Positions 47,123-63,120 of a DNA stretch of 64,000 nucleotides are shown one piece after another. Both the position numbers and the translations under genes were made by a program. The DNA is taken from the IMG/VR virus record IMGVR_UViG_3300040801_001572, positions 32,001 to 96,000 of that record. One strand, 5' to 3'. The stretch comes from a virus. Positions within the stretch are counted from its first letter, which is position 1. Every line of letters begins with the position of its first letter. Below the pieces are notes generated by a model, which had not been told where the DNA came from, ran no database searches, and was given only the letters and a program-made list of their open reading frames with translations.

Positions 47123-47150
47123 TTGACAGAACATAAATAAACTTTATACT
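47123..47150 (+). promoter_or_regulatory. sigma70 promoter P1 of the tRNA array
   Basis: TTGACA-16-TATACT. Confidence 0.7.
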
Positions 47151-47216
47151 GCACCGCATTGTTTAGCGATTTTGGCATTGAAGGCCAAAAACTGCAAAAA
47201 AACCTGTTAAAAGAGG

Positions 47217-47245
47217 TTGACTTTTGTTTGGAAGCTAAATATAAT
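47217..47245 (+). promoter_or_regulatory. sigma70 promoter P2 of the tRNA array, with overlapping late TAAATA
   Basis: TTGACT-17-TATAAT. Confidence 0.8.
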
Positions 47246-48595: not shown

Positions 48596-48683
48596 GTCGT
48601 AGTGGACGAATGGTAGAGTCGCCGGGCTTTCACCCCGGAGTTGCGTATGCATGTTGCGAGTTCGAGTCTCATCTACGATTCCA
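48596..48683 (+). tRNA. tRNA-Glu(TTC) with long variable arm and U73
   Basis: CCGGG-CTTTCAC-CCCGG; CCA. Confidence 0.8.
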
Positions 48684-48705
48684 AACAAGTTTTATAAATA
48701 GGTGT

Positions 48706-49365
48706 ATGATCTACATTGTTTATAAAACAACAAATACTGCTAACGGAAAAGAATACATCGGATGCCATAAAACAAAAGACATTGACGATGGCTATTTAGG
48801 GTCCGGAAGATTGCTTCGAGAAGCAATAGTTAAATACGGCATAGATTCTTTTCGTAGAGAGATTATTGCTATATTAGATAGCGAAAAAGAAATGTTTGCG
48901 TTAGAAGCAAGTATTGTTGATCGAAATTACGTCGATAGAAACGATACATATAATTTAACATTAGGTGGCCATGGAGGATTCTCTCATATATCGAAAGAAT
49001 CTATGTTAGAGAGAAACTTGCAAATTAATTCACATCGTGATTACGAGTGTGAACTTTACAAAGAAAATTTAAAAGCATCTCTTGCTACTGTAGACTACAG
49101 CGAAAGAAATAAGCGAAGAAGAGAAACGTTAGTTAATCGATATGGCTGCGTTCCTTCTTCGTTTAAAGGCAGAGAGCATACTGATGAATCAAAGAAGAAA
49201 ATTGGTTCGGCAAATTCAAAACACCAGCAAGGCACCGGCAACAGCCAATACGGAACTTGTTGGATATACAATTTGCATCTAAAGAAGAATCAGAAAATTC
49301 CTAAATGCGATCTTGATGCGTGGCTAGATAAAGGCTGGCACAAAGGTCGTAAGCTAAAATTTTAG
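48706..49365 (+). mobile_element. GIY-YIG (Seg-like) homing endonuclease
   Basis: IVYKTTN...EYIG and YLGSG motifs; TATAAATA + 5 nt + ATG. Confidence 0.87.
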
Positions 49366-49436
49366 GGGGTGCCATATGGGATGGACTTTGCACTTGCACT
49401 GCGAATGGCGGGGATCGTTACCCCGTTCCTCCACCA
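49365..49436 (+). tRNA. tRNA-Ala(TGC) with degenerate D arm
   Basis: G3:U70; TTGCA-CTTGCAC-TGCGA; CCA. Confidence 0.75.
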
Positions 49437-49442
49437 AATTAT

Positions 49443-49519
49443 GCCGATGACGCGTCCTGGGGGACCAACACGACTGTCTATCGTGTGCATGGCGGGTTCG
49501 ATTCCCGTCTTCGGCGCCA
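49443..49519 (+). tRNA. tRNA-Asp(GTC)
   Basis: CACGA-CTGTCTA-TCGTG; G73; CCA. Confidence 0.85.
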
Positions 49520-49589
49520 AACATGATATGTACTTTTCCGTTAGTCAGCTACTCCAGTAGCCGAGAAAATGCCTCTATCAACTTTTTAT

Positions 49590-49677
49590 GCCCCGGTAGG
49601 CGAATTGGTATAGCCAGCAGGCTGAGAACTTGCGTCCCTCTGTAGACTTGTCGGTTCGAGTCCGACTCGGGGCACCA
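49590..49677 (+). tRNA. tRNA-Leu(GAG)
   Basis: GCAGG-CTGAGAA-CTTGC; long variable arm; CCA. Confidence 0.9.
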
Positions 49678-49730
49678 TCTTCATACTAGTTTATTGTGCT
49701 GTACGAAAACTAGTTTATTGTGTTAAAAAT

Positions 49731-49806
49731 GTGTGCGTGACAGAATGGCTAATGTAGCGGATTGCAACCCCGTTTTTTGCTGGTTCGATTCCAGTCGCAC
49801 ACTCCA
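49731..49806 (+). tRNA. tRNA-Cys(GCA)
   Basis: Loop TTGCAAC; U73; CCA. Confidence 0.88.
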
Positions 49807-49814
49807 AATTCCAT

Positions 49815-49888
49815 GCCCGGTTAGTTTAATGGAAAAACATCTGTGTTACATACAGAAGACGTTGGCTCGATTCCAGCACTGGGTACCA
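49815..49888 (+). tRNA. tRNA-Val(TAC)
   Basis: TCTGT-GTTACAT-ACAGA; CCA. Confidence 0.85.
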
Positions 49889-49894
49889 AACAAT

Positions 49895-49972
49895 GGGGGG
49901 TGAGCTAGTCTGGTGATTCAGCGTCCGCCTGAAGAGCGGAAGAACTTGGTTCGATTCCAAGACCCTTCACCA
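49895..49972 (+). tRNA. tRNA-Phe(GAA)
   Basis: TCCGC-CTGAAGA-GCGGA; CCA. Confidence 0.9.
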
Positions 49973-50016
49973 AATATAGATATTTCCGACTAAATACAAA
50001 TTTAGGAGGAGATATC

Positions 50017-50385
50017 ATGGCAGTAAATCAAATACCGAGCAAACATGCTTTTGCTTTTACAGTAACTGACACCGCTGGTGTAGAACATAAACTTTGGTGG
50101 GATCTAGTGCAAAGTGTATATTTTGCATGGGAAACCGGAGTGTTCCTTATACACCTAGACGACGGTGTTTACAAGCGTATCGCCGCGGCCGACCTGTACC
50201 CAGAATCACAAGCTCCAGAAGGGCGATATGTGAAATTGGTAAACGATTGTCGTAGTACGTTTAATGAAAAGATTTCTAGCATGTTTCTTACTGCAGAGTT
50301 AGGTGAACACCCAGTCGATGACGAAGCATTTGATGCACTAGTCACCGGACTAGTGTGGGATCCTGAAGCACAACAGTTCAAATAA
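50017..50385 (+). CDS. Hypothetical late protein
   Basis: AGGAGG SD inside a hairpin that also contains TAAATA. Confidence 0.7.
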   Translation: MAVNQIPSKHAFAFTVTDTAGVEHKLWWDLVQSVYFAWETGVFLIHLDDGVYKRIAAADLYPESQAPEGRYVKLVNDCRSTFNEKISSMFLTAELGEHPVDDEAFDALVTGLVWDPEAQQFK

Positions 50386-50386
50386 C

Positions 50387-50470
50387 GCGGGCTGCAGGCT
50401 AACTGGCGTAGCCGACGGGCTTCCACCCCGTTCCGAAAGGTTCAGAGTTCGATTCTCTCAGTCCGCTCCA
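50387..50470 (+). tRNA. tRNA-Gly(TCC) with 8/4 fold and a short variable-arm hairpin
   Basis: GCGGGCTG/CAGTCCGC acceptor; 4-bp T stem; U73; CCA. Confidence 0.82.
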
Positions 50471-50476
50471 ATTTTT

Positions 50477-50550
50477 GCGTGTGTAGTATAATGGTATTAT
50501 GCTAGGTTGCCAGCTTAGTGATGCAGGTTCGATTCCTGTCACCCGCACCA
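50477..50550 (+). tRNA. tRNA-Gly(GCC)
   Basis: CTAGG-TTGCCAG-CTTAG; CCA. Confidence 0.88.
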
Positions 50551-50556
50551 AACAAT

Positions 50557-50627
50557 GGGTCGTTGCTCTGGGAGCAAATTGGATTCCAAACCCAATGAGG
50601 AGGGTTCGAAACCTTCACGGCCTGCCA
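50557..50627 (+). tRNA. tRNA-Trp(CCA) with short D arm
   Basis: Loop TTCCAAA; G73; CCA. Confidence 0.8.
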
Positions 50628-50689
50628 ATCATGCACATATAAGTCGGTAGGTACGTTGATCCTGACTATATCACTGTGCACTAAATAAT

Positions 50690-50742
50690 GCCCCGGTAGT
50701 GTAATGGCCATCACGCTTGACTGTCTATCAGGAAACCGGAGT
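50690..50742 (+). pseudogene. 3'-truncated tRNA-Asp(GTC)
   Basis: 5' acceptor strand, D arm and CTTGA-CTGTCTA-TCAGG present; breaks at the T loop where the HNH promoter begins. Confidence 0.75.
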
Positions 50743-50758
50743 AAAGATAAATAGTATT

Positions 50759-51466
50759 ATGAATTATACAAGAATTTATAATGCTATTATTTCGAGAGCA
50801 AAAATGCGTCCGGTTTTAGAAGGATACGCCGAAAGGCACCACATAATTCCTAGATCATTAGGCGGCACAGACGATTTAGATAATCTAGTTATGTTAACAG
50901 CCAAGGAGCATTTTATATGCCACCTGCTTTTAGCTAAGATGTACGAGAAAAATTCTGTGGAATGGCAAAAGATGACCAAGGCATTGATGATGATGCGAGC
51001 GTCTGGTAATGCACATGACAGATATACGTCGGCAACATACGAGTATTTTAAAGAGGCGTTTTCCGAAGCACAGAGTTATGCACAACGAGGCAGTCGAAAT
51101 AGTAGTTATGGAACTCGATGGATTCACAGTTTAGAATTTAAGCAATCTAAAAAAATCTGTAAAAAGGCACCTTTGCCTGATGGCTGGAACGAAGGCAGAA
51201 TTATTGACTTTGAAAAACATGCCTCTGCTATGATGAAGAAAAAGTTATTAGAAGATCAACAAGCAGAATGGGTTGCCAGGTTAGGCATAATATTAGAATA
51301 TTATAGAGATAACGATATTTCCATCAGGGCGTTGTCGAAAAAGTTTAATGTAAACGGTAACATTTATAAGCAGTTTGAAAAATATTACCCAGAAGAATAT
51401 CGAGATATTGTGATGGATAAGCCTCGCAATAGCAACAAAGGAAAAGGTAGATATATGCCTGCGTAG
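50759..51466 (+). mobile_element. HNH homing endonuclease
   Basis: ERHHIIPRSLGGTDDLDNLVMLTAKEHFICH; TAAATA + 5 nt + ATG. Confidence 0.87.
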
Positions 51467-51532
51467 CTCAATCGGGAGAGCACCGGCCTGTCACGTCGGA
51501 GGTAGTGAGATCGAAACTCATCGCAGGCGCCA
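51457..51532 (+). tRNA. tRNA-Asp(GTC)
   Basis: CCGGC-CTGTCAC-GTCGG; G73; CCA. Confidence 0.9.
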
Positions 51533-51605
51533 AATTACTTAAACGGAGAATGTATGTTCAACACTAGTTAAGCACTTCTTATTCATGGAATAAGGAGGTG
51601 CTATT

Positions 51606-51830
51606 ATGAACAGAGCACAATATATGACTCCTGAGCAAAAAGCTCTTTGGGAGTCCGCTGAAAAGCGTGAGGGTCGCAAGATTAAAAGGACCCACGAGAA
51701 CTGCCGCAAAATCCTAGGCCGTTACATTACGGTCAAGGACAATGCGGGAAACAAAACCCGCGTGTTTCGCCCTGGCGTGGCGAGACCTGGCAAGACTGCG
51801 CGAGATCGCGCAAGGAGGCGCGGGAAGTAA
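51606..51830 (+). CDS. Small, very basic protein (74 aa)
   Basis: TAAGGAGGT SD; Arg/Lys-rich. Confidence 0.7.
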   Translation: MNRAQYMTPEQKALWESAEKREGRKIKRTHENCRKILGRYITVKDNAGNKTRVFRPGVARPGKTARDRARRRGK

Positions 51831-51837
51831 AAACAGA

Positions 51838-51928
51838 GGAGGGTGATCCTGTCTGGGACAGGCGTGGTCTTGAAAACCAATGGAGGGTAGAAATATCCTT
51901 GCAGTTCGATTCTAGCCGCCCTCTGCCA
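51838..51928 (+). tRNA. tRNA-Ser(TGA) with tRNA-Sec-like / allo-tRNA-like 8/4 architecture
   Basis: 8-bp acceptor; 6-bp D stem CCTGTC-TGG-GACAGG; long variable arm; G73; CCA. Confidence 0.8.
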
Positions 51929-51932
51929 AATT

Positions 51933-52143
51933 GCGTCGGTGTCTTCCATGCTTAACTTTTAGCGAAGTGAGGGGAGACGAACGTATAGCTTGTACGAACG
52001 GTGTCCTAACGCTGCGCCACGTTTCTCGCTATTCGTTAGGTGTCAAGCTTAAGAAGCGGCCAACAAAACAGGTTATTTCGGGCAGGGCAGAGACGAGCGT
52101 AACCCCCGAATGACTTGGGCAGGAGTTGCGACCTGTCGACGCA
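51933..52143 (+). ncRNA. ~210-nt structured RNA closed by a tRNA-like acceptor/T-arm domain
   Basis: GCGTCG/CGACGC closing helix stacked on GCAGG-AGTTGCGA-CCTGT; long internal hairpins. Confidence 0.55.
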
Positions 52144-52151
52144 CTTATTAG

Positions 52152-52201
52152 CCGTCCTGATGATGACTTAGAGGAGTCGAAACACCACATGGTGTAGGCG
52201 G
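52152..52201 (+). ncRNA. Type I hammerhead ribozyme
   Basis: CCGTC / CTGATGA / GACTT-AGAG-GAGTC / GAAA / ACACC-ACAT-GGTGT / A / GGCGG; predicted cut after A52196. Confidence 0.85.
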
Positions 52202-52253
52202 AGTAGAAGCGTAACTGTAAATGATAAATAAAGTAGTCGGTAAAGGCTACTTT

Positions 52254-53033
52254 ATGAATTATGAAAAAATTTACAGTTCTTTAATAGAAAGAAGCAGACA
52301 TAGAAAACTCTCAGGGTATGTCGAAAGGCACCATGTTGTTCCTAGGTGTCTCGGTGGAACTGACGACGCTAGTAATATCGTCGAACTCACTCCAGAAGAG
52401 CACTATTTGGCTCATCAACTACTAGTCAAAATGTATCCAAAATCTTCGCCTTTAGTTCGAGCTGCTCAGATGATGGTACCGAACCGCCCTTCTAATAAAT
52501 TATACGGCTGGGTCAGAAGACGATTTGCTAAAATTCAAAGCGAAACGCAATCCGGTAGAGGTAATACCCAATTTGGTACTATGTGGATCTTTAATGAGGA
52601 ACTTAAGGAATCTAAGAAGATACCGGTTAACTCGGAAATACCGAAAGGTTGGGAAAAAGGCCGAGTTGTAAAATTTGATGAGAAGTTTAGAGAAAGGCGC
52701 GAAACTGAGCAGAACAGAAAACCTCGTGTATTATGTTCGGAAAGAGAGAAGAAATTAAGACGCATTAAGTCTAAGCATAGAAAAATAAGAAGATCAGAGA
52801 AATATATGTCTGCAAAAACAAAAAAACTTTATTTAGAGTTTCTTTCAGCAGATTTGTCATTAAGAAATTTTGCAAAACAAAAAGGCATAGTGCCGATGAC
52901 ACTTTCTAATTGGTTTAATAAGTATATCGATGAGTATGATATAATACCCAGAACCAAAGCAAACAAACAATTAGGGGCGGACGTATCCTTGGGAGATACA
53001 ACAGGTTGTAACCCTGTCGCGAAGGCTAGGTAG
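52254..53033 (+). mobile_element. HNH homing endonuclease
   Basis: ERHHVVPRCLGGTDDASNIVELTPEEHYLAH; reading frame ends inside tRNA-Tyr. Confidence 0.87.
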
Positions 53034-53057
53034 GTTCGATTCCTACCCGCCCCACCA
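52974..53057 (+). tRNA. tRNA-Tyr(GTA)
   Basis: ACAGG-TTGTAAC-CCTGT; variable arm; CCA. Confidence 0.9.
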
Positions 53058-53097
53058 GATTATTTCGCGGAGTTAACTACTCCGCCACCAAATTTTT

Positions 53098-53192
53098 GCC
53101 GGATGGTGTAATTAACAAGCCTCTTTGAAAGCGTAGGTTTAACCTATTTGAATGCTGAGGAACTGCAGGTATCGAATCCTGCTCCGGCCCCA
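53098..53192 (+). ncRNA. CCA-ended tRNA-like RNA lacking a canonical anticodon loop
   Basis: GCCGGA/TCCGGC acceptor; GCAGG-TATCGAAT-CCTGC T arm; CCTC/GAGG stem capped by a 33-nt insert. Confidence 0.6.
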
Positions 53193-53211
53193 TTTATTTT
53201 ATAGAAACAAT

Positions 53212-53285
53212 CTGTGCGTAGCTCAACGGTAGAGTGCTGGCTTTGGAAGCTTGAGGTGCTGGTTCGACTCCAGTCGCACTGACCA
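53212..53285 (+). tRNA. tRNA-Pro(TGG)
   Basis: Loop TTTGGAA; C1:G72; A73; CCA. Confidence 0.85.
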
Positions 53286-53293
53286 AATTCAAA

Positions 53294-53367
53294 CTCCCCT
53301 TAGTTCAATGGTAGAACGGTCCGTTTGGGACGGAGTGACGTTGGTTCGATTCCAACAGGGGTGACCA
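53294..53367 (+). tRNA. tRNA-Pro(TGG), second isodecoder
   Basis: Loop TTTGGGA; CCA. Confidence 0.85.
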
Positions 53368-53423
53368 AACATTGCAATAGATCTGTACAAGTGTTAATAT
53401 TTAATTTTCAGCGAGAATTCACT

Positions 53424-53726
53424 GTGCAAAAAGTTATTGAATTTATTGCAGCAAACATCGACACTGTTGACACGTTCTTCTCCTCCAGATTTGATTCTGT
53501 TGAGGTAACTGCGATAAGCGCAGATCGTGTTTATGTGAACGTAACTGTATCGGACGACGACAAGAAGGCGTTCGGTGAGAAAATGAAGAAGCTCTCGGTG
53601 TTTAAAAAGGCATATGTTGAAACAACTGATGTGAACTTTTCCGTCAGCGATATCTATGACGAAAATTTCGTTGTCCCGAAGGGTGCATTTGACTATAAGA
53701 CGAAGTATCAAATCTACGAAGTATAA
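53424..53726 (+). CDS. Hypothetical protein
   Basis: In-frame GTG after the tRNA; the longer ORF-track start overlaps tRNA-Pro. Confidence 0.55.
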   Translation: MQKVIEFIAANIDTVDTFFSSRFDSVEVTAISADRVYVNVTVSDDDKKAFGEKMKKLSVFKKAYVETTDVNFSVSDIYDENFVVPKGAFDYKTKYQIYEV

Positions 53727-53758
53727 TTCCGGAGAGTCTAAACACGATAAATAGCATA

Positions 53759-54259
53759 ATGCGACATTTCGAACTTAGAGAAGCACGTGAACTACCGTGG
53801 AACGGTAACATTAATGTTGGCTGGTGGGAAGACCAGTCTAAGCTTACATTATATCACGGCACTCATGTCAGCAATGTCGATTCTGTTATCAAGAACGGCT
53901 TAAACAAAGCAGACCCCGACACCGGAATGATATCGCTTACACTTGATCCTTTTACTGCTCGCGGATATGCAGCAATGCACGGCGGAGAAGCAGAGTTTCG
54001 TAAAGCAGGAAACAAAGCACAGCACGTTCCGATGAATCAAAGAGCAGTGTTTGTGTTCGACATCCCAACAGAATGGATCAAAGCAAATATGGATCCACGG
54101 TTCGGAGGTAATGTAGGATCGGCAGCAGGTAAACTGTCCGATCGTGAGCAATACGAACAATGGACTGGATCGGATACAGAATACTATCAGCTAACAGAAT
54201 TTCGAGTTAGCAAAGCAGTACCTCCCCGCTTTATCAAAGGCTACATGCTTACCAAATAA
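53759..54259 (+). CDS. ADP-ribosyltransferase-fold protein (Tpt1/KptA NAD-binding-lobe-like)
   Basis: LYHGT...IKNGL, ISLT.D..TARGYA and E.RV..AVPPRFI motifs; leaderless late start. Confidence 0.65.
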   Translation: MRHFELREARELPWNGNINVGWWEDQSKLTLYHGTHVSNVDSVIKNGLNKADPDTGMISLTLDPFTARGYAAMHGGEAEFRKAGNKAQHVPMNQRAVFVFDIPTEWIKANMDPRFGGNVGSAAGKLSDREQYEQWTGSDTEYYQLTEFRVSKAVPPRFIKGYMLTK

Positions 54260-54326
54260 ATTTGCACTTCTAGCTGTACTTTGCTAGACTGTTTTCTACT
54301 CAAAAGCTTGACAGCAGGTATACAAA

Positions 54327-54800
54327 ATGCTGAATGATATTGTTATCCATGTCGGACTAGATCCACTCGGCGACCTAGTTGCCATGCTCAATGGCAATAG
54401 TGGAGGAACAGAAAGAATAGCAGAGGGCATATACCAAATTGGTCATTTCAATTTTAACCATGTGCTCGAGGCTAGTGGTTACCGACTTGAAGAATACCCT
54501 AAAGATCTTGTGGATTCCGGCGTTGATGACGATCCTTTTGGCTGGGGGTTTAGTCCGTACGGTGTGTGCGATGATCCGCAGCAAATACTAGATCGCTGCC
54601 CTACACTGCAATCACCGGACAGAGATTTTGTGATATCTGTTACTCCGATTCTAAAAGAGAATCAGGAAAAACATGGCGGTTGGCGCTGGCATAAATGGGG
54701 CGAGTATATCGGTGTTCACGAGATTACTAGCGAGTATCTCTACGATGAGCCAGTTGTAGAAAAGGTGTACTGCTACCACATTTACGAAATAATAGAATAA
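54327..54800 (+). CDS. Hypothetical protein (GGWRWHKWGEYIG motif)
   Basis: ORF track. Confidence 0.65.
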   Translation: MLNDIVIHVGLDPLGDLVAMLNGNSGGTERIAEGIYQIGHFNFNHVLEASGYRLEEYPKDLVDSGVDDDPFGWGFSPYGVCDDPQQILDRCPTLQSPDRDFVISVTPILKENQEKHGGWRWHKWGEYIGVHEITSEYLYDEPVVEKVYCYHIYEIIE

Positions 54801-54801
54801 T

Positions 54802-54886
54802 TCCAGGGTGCGCAGAGAGGTAATGCAGCCGGCTGTTAACCGGTCGTCGAAAGACATCGTTGGTTCGATCCCAACCCCTGGAGCCA
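54802..54886 (+). tRNA. tRNA-Asn(GTT) with non-canonical variable-arm hairpin
   Basis: GCCGG-CTGTTAA-CCGGT; GTC-GAAA-GAC arm; U1:A72; G73; CCA. Confidence 0.88.
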
Positions 54887-54887
54887 A

Positions 54888-55157
54888 TTAACCCCACGGT
54901 GCAATTTCTAATTCGACACCGTGTTTTAGTTGTTGTTCGGCACGTTTGCGGACAGCATCATCCCAGTTTTTAGCAAAAGCATAACCTTTGCCAAATTCGT
55001 CCACAATTACGTATTCCTGTTCAGTTACTTCAGGCGGAGTAGGATACCAACGATCGGTAATTTCGTCGTAAGTCATGCCTCGGTCTTTTTGTACCTGTGC
55101 ATGACGCTTCTTTGAAGGAAACTTCACGACGTTTTCGGTTATCTCGGAAACTTTCAT
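54888..55157 (-). CDS. Hypothetical late protein, antisense to the array
   Basis: TAAATA + 5 nt + ATG on the minus strand; N-terminus MKVSEITE. Confidence 0.65.
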   Translation of the reverse strand: MKVSEITENVVKFPSKKRHAQVQKDRGMTYDEITDRWYPTPPEVTEQEYVIVDEFGKGYAFAKNWDDAVRKRAEQQLKHGVELEIAPWG

Positions 55158-55171
55158 AAATATATTTATCT

Positions 55172-55260
55172 GGAAGGTAAATCAGTCAGGGTACTGAGGG
55201 GACCTGCTAAGTCTTTCGTCTGCTTAACGCGGATCTGTTTCGATTACAGTGCCTTCCGCC
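55172..55260 (+). tRNA. tRNA-Ser(GCT) with 8/4 fold; CCA not fully encoded
   Basis: GGAAGGTA/TGCCTTCC; GGGAC-CTGCTAA-GTCTT; long variable arm; G73. Confidence 0.8.
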
Positions 55261-55321
55261 CTTGGGGCAACATCTGCCCAGTGTACGAATACAAATGCAG
55301 TGTGTTCGAATAAATAGTGTT

Positions 55322-55945
55322 ATGTATTACACGATTTATAAAATCACCAATCAAATCAATGGCAAGCAATACATTGGTGCGCATAAGACCACAGATTTAG
55401 AAGATGATTATATGGGCTCGGGGAAGCTATTAATCCGAGCTATTGAAAAGTACGGCATAGAAAATTTCAGTAAAGAAATTTTAGCTGTATTTGATTCTGC
55501 AGAAGAGATGTTCTCACTTGAAAAAGAACTTGTGAACGAAGAGTACGTTAATAGAAACGATACTTATAATTTGACAAAAGGAGGCTCCGGCGGTAATCGA
55601 CTTTTACCGGGAAATTCGACTTGGTCATCCGAGCATTCTAAAATGATGACAGAGAAAAGATTAAAAATTTATACCGAAGATGAACGACGTGAATGGTCTA
55701 GAAAAGGCGGCCTGGCAATAAAGAAAAAAGGCACTGGTATATTTTCTCCGGAAAACAAAAGAAACAAGGGTAAGCCCCATTCCGAGGAGCACAAGAGAAA
55801 GATAGGAAAGGCAAATTCTGTGTCTCAGAAAGGATCTAAGAATTCTCAGTATGGAACTAGGTGGATTACCAATGGAATTCTTAATAGAAAAATTAAAAAT
55901 GGCGACTGTATTCCGGAAGGTTGGGTATATGGTCGTACACGATAG
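55322..55945 (+). mobile_element. GIY-YIG (Seg-like) homing endonuclease
   Basis: IYKITNQINGKQYIG and YMGSG motifs; TAAATA + 5 nt + ATG. Confidence 0.87.
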
Positions 55946-56018
55946 GCCCTTAGCTTAATGGTTAAAGCGTCGGACTCTGACTCCGAATATATCTGTTCGA
56001 CTCAGATAGGGCCCGCCA
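55944..56018 (+). tRNA. tRNA-Gln(CTG)
   Basis: TCGGA-CTCTGAC-TCCGA; unpaired 1:72; G73; CCA. Confidence 0.88.
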
Positions 56019-56052
56019 ATTTGATAAATATGTGTAACTTGGGAGGTTACAC

Positions 56053-56334
56053 ATGTCTAAAGAAATGCGAAGAATAATGAATATTTTAGAAAATTATCAT
56101 TATGTATTTGCAGATGAAGCACACGACACCCCTGAAGAATTTCGTAAAAATTTGCATAAGGAAGTTATTGCAAATTATTTGAAAGAGAAACATGGTTTAG
56201 ACTTCAACGAATCTGATGAAGATTATATCGCTGCGCTTCAACAAGGCATTGGGCATTTGATGGCGTTAGATCTCTCAAACTCAGAATTAGAAAGCTACTC
56301 ATATCGGAGCGATGTTCCGCTATTTAAGGAATAG
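56053..56334 (+). CDS. Hypothetical late protein (MSKEMRRIM N-terminus)
   Basis: GGAGG SD inside a hairpin; TAAATA upstream. Confidence 0.7.
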   Translation: MSKEMRRIMNILENYHYVFADEAHDTPEEFRKNLHKEVIANYLKEKHGLDFNESDEDYIAALQQGIGHLMALDLSNSELESYSYRSDVPLFKE

Positions 56335-56360
56335 CCCTAACACAACCCACTAAACACCTT

Positions 56361-56436
56361 CCCTGGCTAGCATAATGGTAAATGCACTCGGCTGATAACC
56401 GAGCGAGTCTGTGTTCGATTCACAGGTCAGGGACCA
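56361..56436 (+). tRNA. tRNA-Ile(GAT)
   Basis: CTCGG-CTGATAA-CCGAG; CCA. Confidence 0.9.
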
Positions 56437-56476
56437 AATTATTACAAGTAGTCAAAGTAAACAACTAAATACGCTT

Positions 56477-57133
56477 GTGAAATATTATATTTTATACAAG
56501 ACTACCAACTTAATAACAGGCCAATATTATATAGGTAAACACGAGACAGACAATTTAGACGATAATTATCTGGGCTCAGGGCTGCGGTTAAATCGTGCAA
56601 TCAAAAAATACGGTAAAGAGAATTTTAAAAAAGAAATTCTTTGTTTTCTAGAAAATTCGGCAATATTAAACGATTCAGAAAAAATGTTAATAAATGAGCA
56701 CTTGGAAAATCCGAAATGTTATAATTTAGCACCCGGAGGCCAAGGAGGCCACGTGTATGCTCATTATACAGAAGAAGATAAGAAAAACATTTATGCTAAG
56801 ATTAGCAAAACTTTAAAAAGAAAGAAAATCGCTCCACCGAGGCCCGACCTAAAGGGCAGAACACTGTCCGACGAACACAAGAGGAAGATTAGCGAATCAC
56901 AGAAAGGTCGCAAAAAGCCCACTAGGTCAGCTGAACACTGTAGGAATATTAGTAAATCTCTCAAGGGTAAGAAGCTAAGTAAAAACATGAAGCTTCGTCT
57001 GTCAAACAAAATGAAACAGAATCATGCCAACCATAAAGAATTAACTTGTCCCCACTGCATGAAAAATGGAAAAAGTGGATCTATGTATAGATGGCATTTT
57101 GATAACTGCAAAAATAAGCGCGGGTTAGAGTAG
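56477..57133 (+). mobile_element. GIY-YIG homing endonuclease with NUMOD3-like repeats and CxxC module
   Basis: LYKTTNLITGQYYIG and YLGSG motifs; TAAATA + 5 nt + GTG. Confidence 0.85.
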
Positions 57134-57192
57134 TGGTTACTCATGGGTCTCATAAGCCCACTAGGTCGGTTCGATTCCGGCACCCGCTACCA
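57119..57192 (+). tRNA. tRNA-Met(CAT), initiator-like
   Basis: C1 mismatch; A11:U24; three G:C pairs in the anticodon stem; CCA. Confidence 0.85.
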
Positions 57193-57200
57193 AACACAAT

Positions 57201-57459: not shown

Positions 57460-57488
57460 TTGCATTGTTGTTCCAGAGAGTGTATAAT
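57460..57488 (+). promoter_or_regulatory. sigma70 promoter, leaderless start of the sbtA-like gene
   Basis: TTGCAT-17-TATAAT; ATG 7 nt downstream. Confidence 0.7.
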
Positions 57489-57495
57489 TCCCCCT

Positions 57496-58419
57496 ATGGA
57501 TCCTGCAATTTTATTTTTTGTTTTAGGCTTTATTGCAACACTACTGGGTAGCAATATACGTTTTCCGGAATCAACTGCAAAGGCAGTTAGTCTTTACTTG
57601 CTAATCGCAATCGGCTATAAAGGCGGAATGTCGATGGCAACCGCTGCACTGAGTTATTCAATGGCAATGTCACTAGGACTTGCTTTAGCTGCTAGCGTTG
57701 TTGTTCCGTTAGTCGCATATCTGTTGCTAAGAAAATTAGAAAAACTCGAAGATGCTGTGAGCATTGCAGCAACATATGGTTCGGTTAGTGCAGTGACGTT
57801 TGTCACAGCCGTTGCATTCTTAGAGGCAGCAGGCATAGTGTTTGGCGGTTACATGGTAGCAGCACTGACTGTGATGGAAGCACCTAGTATTGTAATGGCA
57901 CTACTACTTTATAACCGAAGCACTAGTGAAAGCAAAACTTCACTGAAAGAGTTAGGTAGAATTATCTTTGCAGAAAAAAGCATTGCTATCTTGTTAGGTA
58001 GTATGTTTATCGGATATTTTGCAGGTGCCGAATACCAATTAGCACTAGCAATTAAAGGTGATATTTTTAAATTTGCCCTTTGTTTATTTTTGTTAGACAT
58101 GGGCGCAAAGGTTGGTGAACGTTTCCGAGTAACAAAAACACTTGAAATTCATAATGTTCTTTTTGCTCTGTTAATGCCAATTACAGCAAGTATTACCATG
58201 CTGTTAGTGGCTAGTATGTTATCACTTCCGGTAGGTAATGCTTTGTTGCTTGCAATACTGGCAGGATCAGCAAGCTATATTGTTGTTCCGGCCGTTATGC
58301 AAGAAGCTATGCCTGATGCAGATCATGCAAAATATTTTACAATGAGCCTAGCTATCACTTTTCCGTTTAACGTAATTGTTGGCATACCTGCTTATTACTA
58401 TTTGTTGCTGTTGCTATGA
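57496..58419 (+). CDS. sbtA: Sodium-dependent bicarbonate transporter family permease (SbtA-like)
   Basis: DPAILFF.LG, IGYKGG, AATYGSVSAVTF, MEAP, SASYI.VPA and ITFPFN motifs; many hydrophobic segments. Confidence 0.82.
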   Translation: MDPAILFFVLGFIATLLGSNIRFPESTAKAVSLYLLIAIGYKGGMSMATAALSYSMAMSLGLALAASVVVPLVAYLLLRKLEKLEDAVSIAATYGSVSAVTFVTAVAFLEAAGIVFGGYMVAALTVMEAPSIVMALLLYNRSTSESKTSLKELGRIIFAEKSIAILLGSMFIGYFAGAEYQLALAIKGDIFKFALCLFLLDMGAKVGERFRVTKTLEIHNVLFALLMPITASITMLLVASMLSLPVGNALLLAILAGSASYIVVPAVMQEAMPDADHAKYFTMSLAITFPFNVIVGIPAYYYLLLLL

Positions 58420-58673
58420 AAGCAGTTGTTGTACAAGAATCCGATATAGAAAAGGCACTAACCAAAGCAGGTTATATGTCTACACCATACGGCGATAAAC
58501 ATATAGCAAGAGTGTTGGACATTTCAGAAAACCAATCTGTGGTCACACTTAGTACAGGCGAATCTTACTTTTGTGAAACCACAGAAGGACCTAGCTCACA
58601 CGCATACATGAAAATATTCACTGTAGTGGGCAACGTACCTGTTCCGGGAATCGAAGTTGTTCGATTCCCATAA
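58416..58673 (+). CDS. Small protein coupled to sbtA, possibly a diverged SbtB/PII-like partner
   Basis: ATGA overlap; position matches sbtB, sequence resemblance weak. Confidence 0.4.
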   Translation: MKAVVVQESDIEKALTKAGYMSTPYGDKHIARVLDISENQSVVTLSTGESYFCETTEGPSSHAYMKIFTVVGNVPVPGIEVVRFP

Positions 58674-58674
58674 T

Positions 58675-58751
58675 GCCGGTGTACCAGAATAGGCATATGG
58701 ACCTGGTTCAAACCCAGGGGTTTGTGGGTTCGACCCCCACCACCGGTACCA
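58675..58751 (+). tRNA. tRNA-Leu(CAA) lacking the long variable arm
   Basis: CCTGG-TTCAAAC-CCAGG; CCA. Confidence 0.88.
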
Positions 58752-62741: not shown

Positions 62742-63008
62742 GTGAAAAGGCTTGCAAAAACTTTTATCGATTTTGTTTGGTGGCTGTTTCTTATGCCATC
62801 GAACTATGACCAAGAAAGAAGAAATTCACCCGAATACAAAGCAAGATTGCGCATAGTCCAATCAGCGTGGACTGTGGTCGGAATCTTTATGCTATTTGTC
62901 TTATTCTTTTATCCCGGCCTCCCGGGGTTAGCGATGTGCATGGTCTTAGGACTGTTAATGACGTTCGGAGCCTTTATGTTCCTGGACGAATACCACATCG
63001 ACGACTAG
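62742..63008 (+). CDS. Small membrane protein
   Basis: Two hydrophobic helices. Confidence 0.55.
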   Translation: MKRLAKTFIDFVWWLFLMPSNYDQERRNSPEYKARLRIVQSAWTVVGIFMLFVLFFYPGLPGLAMCMVLGLLMTFGAFMFLDEYHIDD

Positions 63009-63014
63009 TTTTAT

Positions 63015-63120
63015 GGGCGTATAGTTTGAATGGATAAAACGACAGGCTCCACACCTGTAGATCCGGAGCGGAAGCGCTGCAGAGCTGAAGCTAATGGTTC
63101 GAGTCCCGGTGCGCTCGCCA
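63015..63120 (+). tRNA. tRNA-Trp(CCA) with a ~30-nt structured insertion in the T-stem 5' strand
   Basis: GGGCGTA/TGCGCTC; ACAGG-CTCCACA-CCTGT; G73; CCA. Confidence 0.7.

Follow-up and report, generated by a model that had tools for sequence, protein, structure and literature searches.

The closest described system to the one considered here is the segB gene of bacteriophage T4, which lies between two transfer RNA (tRNA) genes, 41 nucleotides (nt) after tRNA-Ile. According to a proposal by Brok-Volchanskaya et al. (2008), the segB messenger RNA (mRNA) is cut between the last sense codon and the stop codon when the tRNA precursor is processed (PMC2330249); a 2010 review assigns this cut to ribonuclease (RNase) E (PMC2988022). 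SegB was described as an enzyme of relaxed specificity that is potentially toxic to the host, and no activity of it could be detected in infected-cell extracts (PMC2330249). A hairpin over the ribosome-binding site and AUG of segB was also proposed (PMC2330249), and the same device has been described for other T4 endonucleases (PMC2988022). According to the 2008 paper, lowered expression via transcript processing has also been proposed for the F-Tfl endonucleases of T5 (PMC2330249). Here we describe five homing endonuclease genes (endonucleases 1–5) in the tRNA array of a phage known from IMG/VR virus record IMGVR_UViG_3300040801_001572 (114,654 bp; CheckV completeness 31%). Bases 32001–96000 of this record, a stretch of 64,000 nt, were studied and are referred to as the window. 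All five open reading frames (ORFs) end 1–60 nt inside the next same-strand tRNA. The layout and the idea of attenuation have already been described for T4 segB and T5; the new elements are a rule that holds across genomes and the evidence from empty and filled sites.

T5 has a similar arrangement. Its annotated ORFs hegC and hegD (F-Tfl group) and T5.069 (T5orf172/MUG113 domain) run 14, 23, and 24 nt, respectively, into the downstream tRNA, whereas a gap of 0–15 nt remains wherever another annotated real-length T5 ORF (T5.058 and above) is followed by a tRNA or stable RNA. However, T5 belongs to another phage family, local profiles detect no closeness between its HNH enzymes and endonucleases 2 and 3, and the annotation marks one of the overlapped T5 tRNAs as a pseudogene. 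In Vibrio phage VB_VaC_SRILMA, which differs in being a cultured phage, an HNH homolog of endonuclease 2 ends 10 nt inside tRNA-Thr, at U8-A9-G10, and a neighboring ORF ends 1 nt before tRNA-Ile. Site-specific cleavage of tRNA genes (T-loop motif GGTTCRANTCC) would be expected of a SegB-type enzyme. Chihara et al. (2026) reported that SegB homologs co-localize with tRNAs across phages and drive tRNA-gene amplification, and that T6 SegB amplifies a segment with the tRNA-Tyr and segB genes, evading Septu (PMC13096335). We found no paper that quantifies the contrast between endonuclease and other ORFs at tRNA junctions.

The window contains 24 same-strand tRNAs from 47.8 kb onward (ARAGORN). The array runs past the window to the end of the record, which carries 42 tRNAs as a whole. 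Spacers between adjacent tRNAs are 3–9 nt long, and nearly all of the tRNAs encode CCA. Unlike T4, the array in the window carries five endonucleases of two families. Judged by their families, the five ORFs are free-standing homing endonuclease genes, three of the SegB-type GIY-YIG and two of the Mob-type HNH class. They had been taken for homing endonucleases from the letters alone, and all five have PHROG homing endonuclease matches (E-values of 1e-39 to 1e-50). Pfam GIY-YIG, NUMOD3, or HNH domains were found in four of the five (PF19835/PF01541 for GIY-YIG); endonuclease 3 has no Pfam match at E<0.01. The three GIY-YIG ORFs (1, 4, and 5) share 38–43% full-length identity with T4 SegB; their alignment with it contains 34 invariant columns, including the tyrosines and glycines of the GIY and YIG motifs. 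A C-terminal motif of the GWxKGRK type of SegB runs up to the tRNA in endonucleases 1 and 4. The C-terminal module of endonuclease 5 differs from this type, and NUMOD3 is present in endonucleases 4 and 5. Endonuclease 2 has tblastn matches to MobD-type and other annotated homing endonucleases of cultured phages, and its best annotated match is the homing endonuclease of VB_VaC_SRILMA (52% identity). A scan of other ORFs in the part of the array that lies in the window revealed no further endonucleases.

The stop positions were recomputed from the sequence and from the ARAGORN and Rfam tRNA boundaries, and all five agree with those of the sequence-only reading. The start positions listed in Table 1 are the likely true starts; for endonuclease 2, the frame is open from TTG 50717, and the likely start is an ATG. 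Endonuclease 1 has the C-terminus ...GWHKGRKLKF, and its TAG (49363–49365) straddles the 5' end of tRNA-Ala, the last 1–2 nt being common to both genes. Placement of G1 of this tRNA at 49365, as read earlier, gives a better acceptor stem than the ARAGORN start at 49364. The TAG of endonuclease 2 (51464–51466) is U8-A9-G10 of tRNA-Asp. Endonuclease 3 reads 60 nt into tRNA-Tyr, so that its last 20 codons are tRNA sequence with the stop at nt 58–60; its conserved domain ends by approximately residue 239. Endonuclease 4 ends with ...IPEGWVYGRTR, and the A and G of its TAG (55943–55945) are nt 1–2 of tRNA-Gln. Four codons and the TAG of endonuclease 5 lie inside nt 1–15 of tRNA-Met, with the TAG (57131–57133) at nt 13–15. 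In all five cases, the predicted RNase P site (−1/+1 of the tRNA) precedes the stop codon or falls within it. An artefact due to wrong frames or false tRNAs was rejected for four of the five junctions and is conceivable only insofar as tRNA-Ala may be non-functional.

To count such overlaps across phage tRNA arrays, as the sequence-only reading had proposed, we pooled the present contig, 80 IMG/VR loci found with endonuclease 4, T4, and T5. ORFs of at least 60 aa outside tRNA sequence were counted if they ended inside a same-strand tRNA or at most 40 nt upstream of it; they were classed by local profiles with PHROG and Pfam checks and dereplicated at 80% identity. The enrichment was strong: 30 of 44 endonuclease ORFs overlapped a tRNA, against 9 of 79 others (odds ratio 16.7, Fisher p = 1.4e-10), in a sample whose loci were retrieved by homology to one overlapping endonuclease, whose junctions are not fully independent despite dereplication, and whose non-endonuclease class takes in unverified ORFs of at least 60 aa. 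The contrast holds without this contig (24/37 vs 7/63, Fisher p = 4.6e-8), in this contig alone (6/7 vs 2/16, Fisher p = 0.0017), and among flush ORFs, which overlap the tRNA or leave a gap of 0–5 nt (30/41 vs 9/37, p = 3e-5). With one junction per source, the median p was 5e-6, and 20 isoacceptors were involved. Before dereplication, 15 of the homologs at the 80 loci end inside the next tRNA and 13 end 0–4 nt before it, while the remainder stop farther off or lack a downstream tRNA; a tRNA lies within approximately 100 nt upstream of the gene in 65 of the 80. Beyond the window, the record holds one further endonuclease-like ORF, which overlaps tRNA-Met by 23 nt, and one DUF559/NUMOD3 ORF that is followed by no tRNA.

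Related contigs contain empty and filled versions of the same sites. In contig L005, tRNA-Ser and tRNA-Met are 1 nt apart, whereas a 712-nt cassette occupies the same junction in L004. The cassette consists of a conserved leader of ~60 nt with a ribosome-binding site, followed by an ORF whose final conserved residues directly precede the tRNA and whose frame is closed by a TAG formed by nt 13–15 of tRNA-Met. Conversely, L004 has an 8-nt spacer before tRNA-Cys, where both L005 and L008 carry a cassette ending at a TGA, nt 2–4 of tRNA-Cys. This presence and absence concerns homologs in L004, L005, and L008 rather than the window's own five copies. Lacking both a 3' untranslated region and its own stop codon, the cassette takes its stop from the tRNA. 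Since leader and ORF together fill a spacer of 1–8 nt, the frame meets its first stop in the tRNA.

Two cassettes at different tRNA junctions (L004:4004–4669 and L005:970–1602) have a near-identical leader and catalytic half and share their last ~12 codons, but they differ sharply in the middle DNA-binding part. This pair looks like a case of retargeting by module exchange.

Sequencing runs with DNA of this phage were also inspected. There are four such DNA runs, all from one metagenomic study of a microbial mat. In one of them, a contig at approximately 5x local depth joins window position 55224 to 57196, that is, tRNA-Ser(GCU) to the spacer before tRNA-Leu(UAG), and thereby skips 1971 nt with two endonucleases and three tRNAs. 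The matching side of this joint is just 30 nt long, and the joint may represent a related phage or cross-matching between tRNAs. The contigs from these runs are short and of low depth, and two joints with sides of 24–30 nt are not readable as endonuclease-free alleles.

The ordinary ORFs of the array end differently. As the sequence-only reading had noted, most of them stop just before their tRNA: three within the window (at 50385, 54800, and 58673) leave 1 nt, and the ORF from 62742 to 63008 stops 6 nt before a weak Rfam tRNA match at 63015–63117. In the contig, seven ordinary ORFs have a TAA that ends exactly 1 nt before the tRNA 5' end; besides the three in the window, these are at L003 1412, 9165, and 19080 and at genome position 2591, upstream of the window. 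The same 1-nt mode recurs in the IMG/VR loci, in T5, and in the Vibrio phage. Among the pooled ordinary ORFs, 15 of 70 have a gap of 0–1 nt (p = 1e-6), and the modal gap is 1 nt. Position −1 of the tRNAs is T in ~69%, matching the known preference of RNase P. The 1-nt TAA spacing is in effect a rule, akin to punctuation, that cargo genes of phage tRNA arrays follow. An ORF with a TAG across the start of tRNA-Gln (L003:2906–3337) was considered as a candidate endonuclease and was rejected, having no detectable endonuclease similarity.

Table 1. Coordinates of the features discussed in the text, as positions in the window
Feature	Position	Strand	Evidence and remarks
Two near-consensus sigma-70-like promoters	47123–47245	+	11/12 matches at 47123–47150 and 47217–47245, consensus scan
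tRNA-Glu(UUC)	48596–48683	+	Rfam, 45.9 bits; 22-nt gap to endonuclease 1
Hairpin over Shine-Dalgarno (AGGUG) and AUG of endonuclease 1	48689–48728	+	−12.7 kcal/mol, z = −3.05 vs shuffles
Endonuclease 1, SegB-like GIY-YIG, 219 aa	48706–49365	+	phrog_314, 1e-39; PF19835; 39% identity to T4 SegB
Atypical tRNA-Ala(UGC)-like gene	49364–49436	+	ARAGORN; G3:U70 present
Ordinary ORF, no family match	50017–50385	+	TAA ends 1 nt before tRNA-Gly(UCC) at 50387
tRNA-like remnant without T arm, anticodon GUC	50690–50743	+	Rfam tRNA, 25.7 bits; directly upstream of endonuclease 2
Hairpin over AUG of endonuclease 2	50745–50792	+	−13.7 kcal/mol, z = −3.97
Endonuclease 2, Mob-like HNH	50759–51466	+	phrog_655, 9e-45; PF01844; similarity to annotated Mob-type and other homing endonucleases
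tRNA-Asp(GUC)	51457–51532	+	ARAGORN; Rfam, 59.6 bits
Endonuclease 3, HNH, 270 aa	52221–53033	+	phrog_655, 1e-49, residues 11–239
tRNA-Tyr(GUA), class II	52974–53057	+	ARAGORN; clean cloverleaf
Ordinary ORF, phrog_18298, unknown function	54327–54800	+	TAA ends 1 nt before tRNA-Asn at 54802
tRNA-Ser(GCU)	55172–55260	+	ARAGORN; 61-nt leader to endonuclease 4
Endonuclease 4, SegB-like GIY-YIG and NUMOD3, 207 aa	55322–55945	+	phrog_314, 4e-49; Pfam; 43% identity to SegB
tRNA-Gln(CUG), A1/C72 mismatch	55944–56018	+	ARAGORN; Rfam, 63.7 bits, same start
tRNA-Ile(GAU)	56361–56436	+	ARAGORN, Rfam; 40-nt leader to endonuclease 5
Endonuclease 5, GIY-YIG and NUMOD3, GTG start	56477–57133	+	phrog_314, 1e-46; Pfam
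tRNA-Met(CAU)	57119–57192	+	ARAGORN; Rfam, 49.5 bits
Ordinary ORF	58416–58673	+	TAA ends 1 nt before tRNA-Leu(CAA) at 58675

The endonuclease frames read only a short distance into the tRNA. Their median read-in is 12 nt, compared with 31 nt for random frames (Mann-Whitney p = 4e-6); 73% of the read-ins are 16 nt or shorter, and none passes through a whole tRNA, which would be expected for 30% of random frames. Such a bias would be unexpected if termination never took place at the embedded stops, and it suggests that they are used on unprocessed precursor transcripts. A polycistronic precursor of tRNAs and ORFs probably starts from the two sigma-70-like promoters ahead of the array. In the consensus scan, no comparably strong plus-strand promoter was found directly before any endonuclease gene, and no terminator-like site was found at the ORF–tRNA junctions. 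Strong promoter-like sites thus lie solely upstream of the array, which fits one long precursor transcript.

The explanation that we favor, with a probability of about 0.6, is that stop-less homing endonuclease cassettes sit flush in tRNA spacers, lose their stop codon through tRNA processing, and consequently give a low output of nuclease. In a large phage with a long tRNA array, homing endonuclease genes would have colonized the spacers of a few nucleotides between tRNA genes. Each cassette comprises a short 5' leader with a ribosome-binding site (22–61 nt after the upstream tRNA where known) and an ORF whose conserved C-terminus is flush to nt +1 of the downstream tRNA. Translation would end at the first in-frame stop of the tRNA, which is at the junction, at U8-A9-G10, at nt 13–15, or in one case at nt 58–60, and selection would keep the read-in short. 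The genes are probably co-transcribed with the tRNAs, and a complete frame would be present on the unprocessed precursor only. The 5' maturation of the tRNA by RNase P would strip off the stop codon; output would probably be limited to the precursor, and the surplus mRNA would be non-stop. Together with the hairpins at the start sites, the loss of the stop would hold nuclease output low and brief. Ordinary genes in the array would need to be expressed from processed RNA, so that an intact TAA would be kept 0–1 nt upstream of the cut, whereas selfish endonucleases could tolerate or benefit from the loss of the stop. Attenuation of nuclease expression by tRNA processing is plausible.

Several observations weigh against this explanation, in addition to the partial dependence among the pooled junctions and the breadth of the comparison class mentioned above. 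Overlap is not universal: approximately half of the 80 SegB-like homologs are more than 50 nt from a downstream tRNA or have none near, and one HNH ORF beyond the window ends 8 nt short of tRNA-Leu. T4 segB has its own TAA, 5 nt before tRNA-Arg, whereas the genes in the window have no stop of their own. A few non-nuclease ORFs also overlap a tRNA, such as a PfkB-like kinase in L005. Finally, tRNA-Ala may not be a working tRNA and may be a pseudogene; it has no Rfam tRNA match at E<1, its T loop is ATCGTTA, and its acceptor and D stems are separated by 1 nt.

The overlap might also be a neutral by-product, in which the cassettes landed flush in tiny spacers under relaxed selection and coupled translation finishes before the tRNA folds and is cut, with no effect on expression. 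The spacers of 1–8 nt at the empty and filled sites agree with this possibility, because a flush ORF without its own stop must enter the tRNA. The stops fall at conserved stop-like tRNA triplets (nt 8–10 and 13–15), as a rule of the first in-frame stop predicts, and the homologs that lie far from a tRNA are likewise compatible with neutrality. However, the ordinary ORFs in the same arrays keep complete stops 0–1 nt before the cut, which argues that processing matters for the translation of array mRNAs, and the hairpins at the start sites point to independent down-regulation. We regard a purely neutral origin as a serious rival, although not a very likely one.

A broader idea is that phage arrays run a punctuation like that of mitochondria. 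Mitochondrial tRNA punctuation with incomplete stop codons was reportedly described by Ojala et al. in 1981. In the array, as in mitochondria, ORFs abut tRNAs without a spacer, and excision of the tRNAs would set the 3' ends of the mRNAs. The 3' ends of all array mRNAs would then be RNase P cuts, cargo genes would be under selection for a TAA 0–1 nt ahead of the cut, and the stop-less endonuclease genes would depend on a race between the ribosome and the folding and cleavage of the tRNA, so that protein would come from the precursor only and the rest of the mRNA would be non-stop. At two junctions, where the cut falls within the stop (T|AG or TA|G), T or TA would remain, and, by analogy, addition of an A-tail could restore a UAA stop. 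Differences from mitochondria are the bacterial or phage setting and the full TAA that ordinary ORFs keep here. We consider this wider scheme tentative and somewhat improbable.

It is unlikely that the overlap was selected so that transfer-messenger RNA (tmRNA) tags the nuclease products and causes their degradation, limiting toxicity. The relaxed specificity, potential toxicity, and undetectable activity of SegB would agree with such a role (PMC2330249), and so would the strong enrichment. The claim of the sequence-only reading that RNase P cleavage yields non-stop messages survives in one part, since the predicted cut removes all five stops; in its purely non-stop form, it is in tension with the short read-ins. 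Were every message non-stop, selection could not act on where the embedded stop lies; the read-ins are, however, strongly biased toward early stops and never span a whole tRNA. A tmRNA gene was not detected in the contig. Ribosome rescue by ArfA or ArfB also counts against tagging, as the protein set free would carry no tag and would probably be active. The arfA gene of E. coli is itself regulated through a non-stop mRNA, which is produced by RNase III cleavage. There, too, a ribonuclease removes the stop and output depends on ribosome-rescue capacity; the analogy is one of mechanism only, as the nuclease and the purpose are different and no tRNA takes part.

The SegB-like nucleases could instead have been domesticated to amplify tRNA segments against tRNA-targeting defenses, with the overlap simply reflecting a tight linkage between nuclease and cargo. 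The action of T6 SegB against Septu and the co-localization of SegB with tRNAs favor this view, as do the many duplicated isoacceptors in the array. However, the duplicated tRNAs have diverged from one another, and the report on amplification mentions neither overlaps nor stop codons (PMC13096335). Amplification accounts for co-location but not for a stop inside the tRNA, and we judge it decidedly unlikely as the reason for the overlap. A retention device, in which the overlap ties the endonuclease to a useful tRNA and makes clean deletion harder, as had been suggested from the sequence, is very improbable: T4 endonuclease genes that carry promoters for neighboring essential genes are thought to be retained in this way (PMC2988022), but here the shared bases are all tRNA, the ORF can be lost upstream of +1 without damage to the tRNA, related contigs carry natural alleles that lack the endonuclease but retain both tRNAs of the pair intact, and no strong promoter was found inside the cassettes in the consensus scan.

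These results provide a quantified rule for phage tRNA arrays, in which selfish nuclease genes end inside the next tRNA and cargo genes end one base before it. The rule aids annotation, as gene callers tend to trim or drop ORFs that overlap a tRNA, and it shows how homing cassettes fit into spacers of just 1–8 nt. The 2008 idea from T4 segB that tRNA processing limits endonuclease expression becomes directly testable in T5 or in the culturable Vibrio phage. SegB-type nucleases have recently been shown to amplify tRNA genes against tRNA-targeting defenses; therefore, the restraint of their expression is of wider interest.

In the tRNA-like remnant directly upstream of endonuclease 2, 19 model positions of the T arm are replaced by 1 nt, possibly as a scar left by nuclease action on T loops. 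It shares the anticodon GUC with the downstream tRNA-Asp, but their sequences are unrelated. An upstream tRNA remnant was found at endonuclease 2 only among the five. Insertion of a cassette into a broken tRNA with a spare copy was also considered and was rejected; the 260 nt upstream of each endonuclease have no significant similarity to the downstream tRNA. Degenerate tRNA-like elements are also present at 50557–50624 and 49442–49516. A class II tRNA at 51838–51924 was missed by ARAGORN, and Rfam scores it as tRNA-Sec (48.5 bits). Its anticodon loop is CUUGAAA, which gives the anticodon UGA; therefore, it is read as tRNA-Ser(UGA) and not as tRNA-Sec.

No relatives of the phage were found by megablast against a phage collection or, in IMG/VR, by exact-pattern scans with the 5' halves of tRNA-Gln and tRNA-Met, and a search for related loci with endonuclease 3 returned none. 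A full-length gene for an SbtA-type sodium-dependent bicarbonate transporter lies inside the array at 57460–58419 (PF05982, E = 1e-90); it is possibly an auxiliary metabolic gene and a hint at the host. The segment 58798–59013, just upstream of tRNA-Thr, weakly matches the Rfam model of class A bacterial RNase P RNA (28.4 bits, where the gathering score is 100; E = 1.2e-5), and the match covers the whole model in just 216 nt. If true, a minimal RNase P RNA encoded by the phage at this position would bear directly on the processing of the array.

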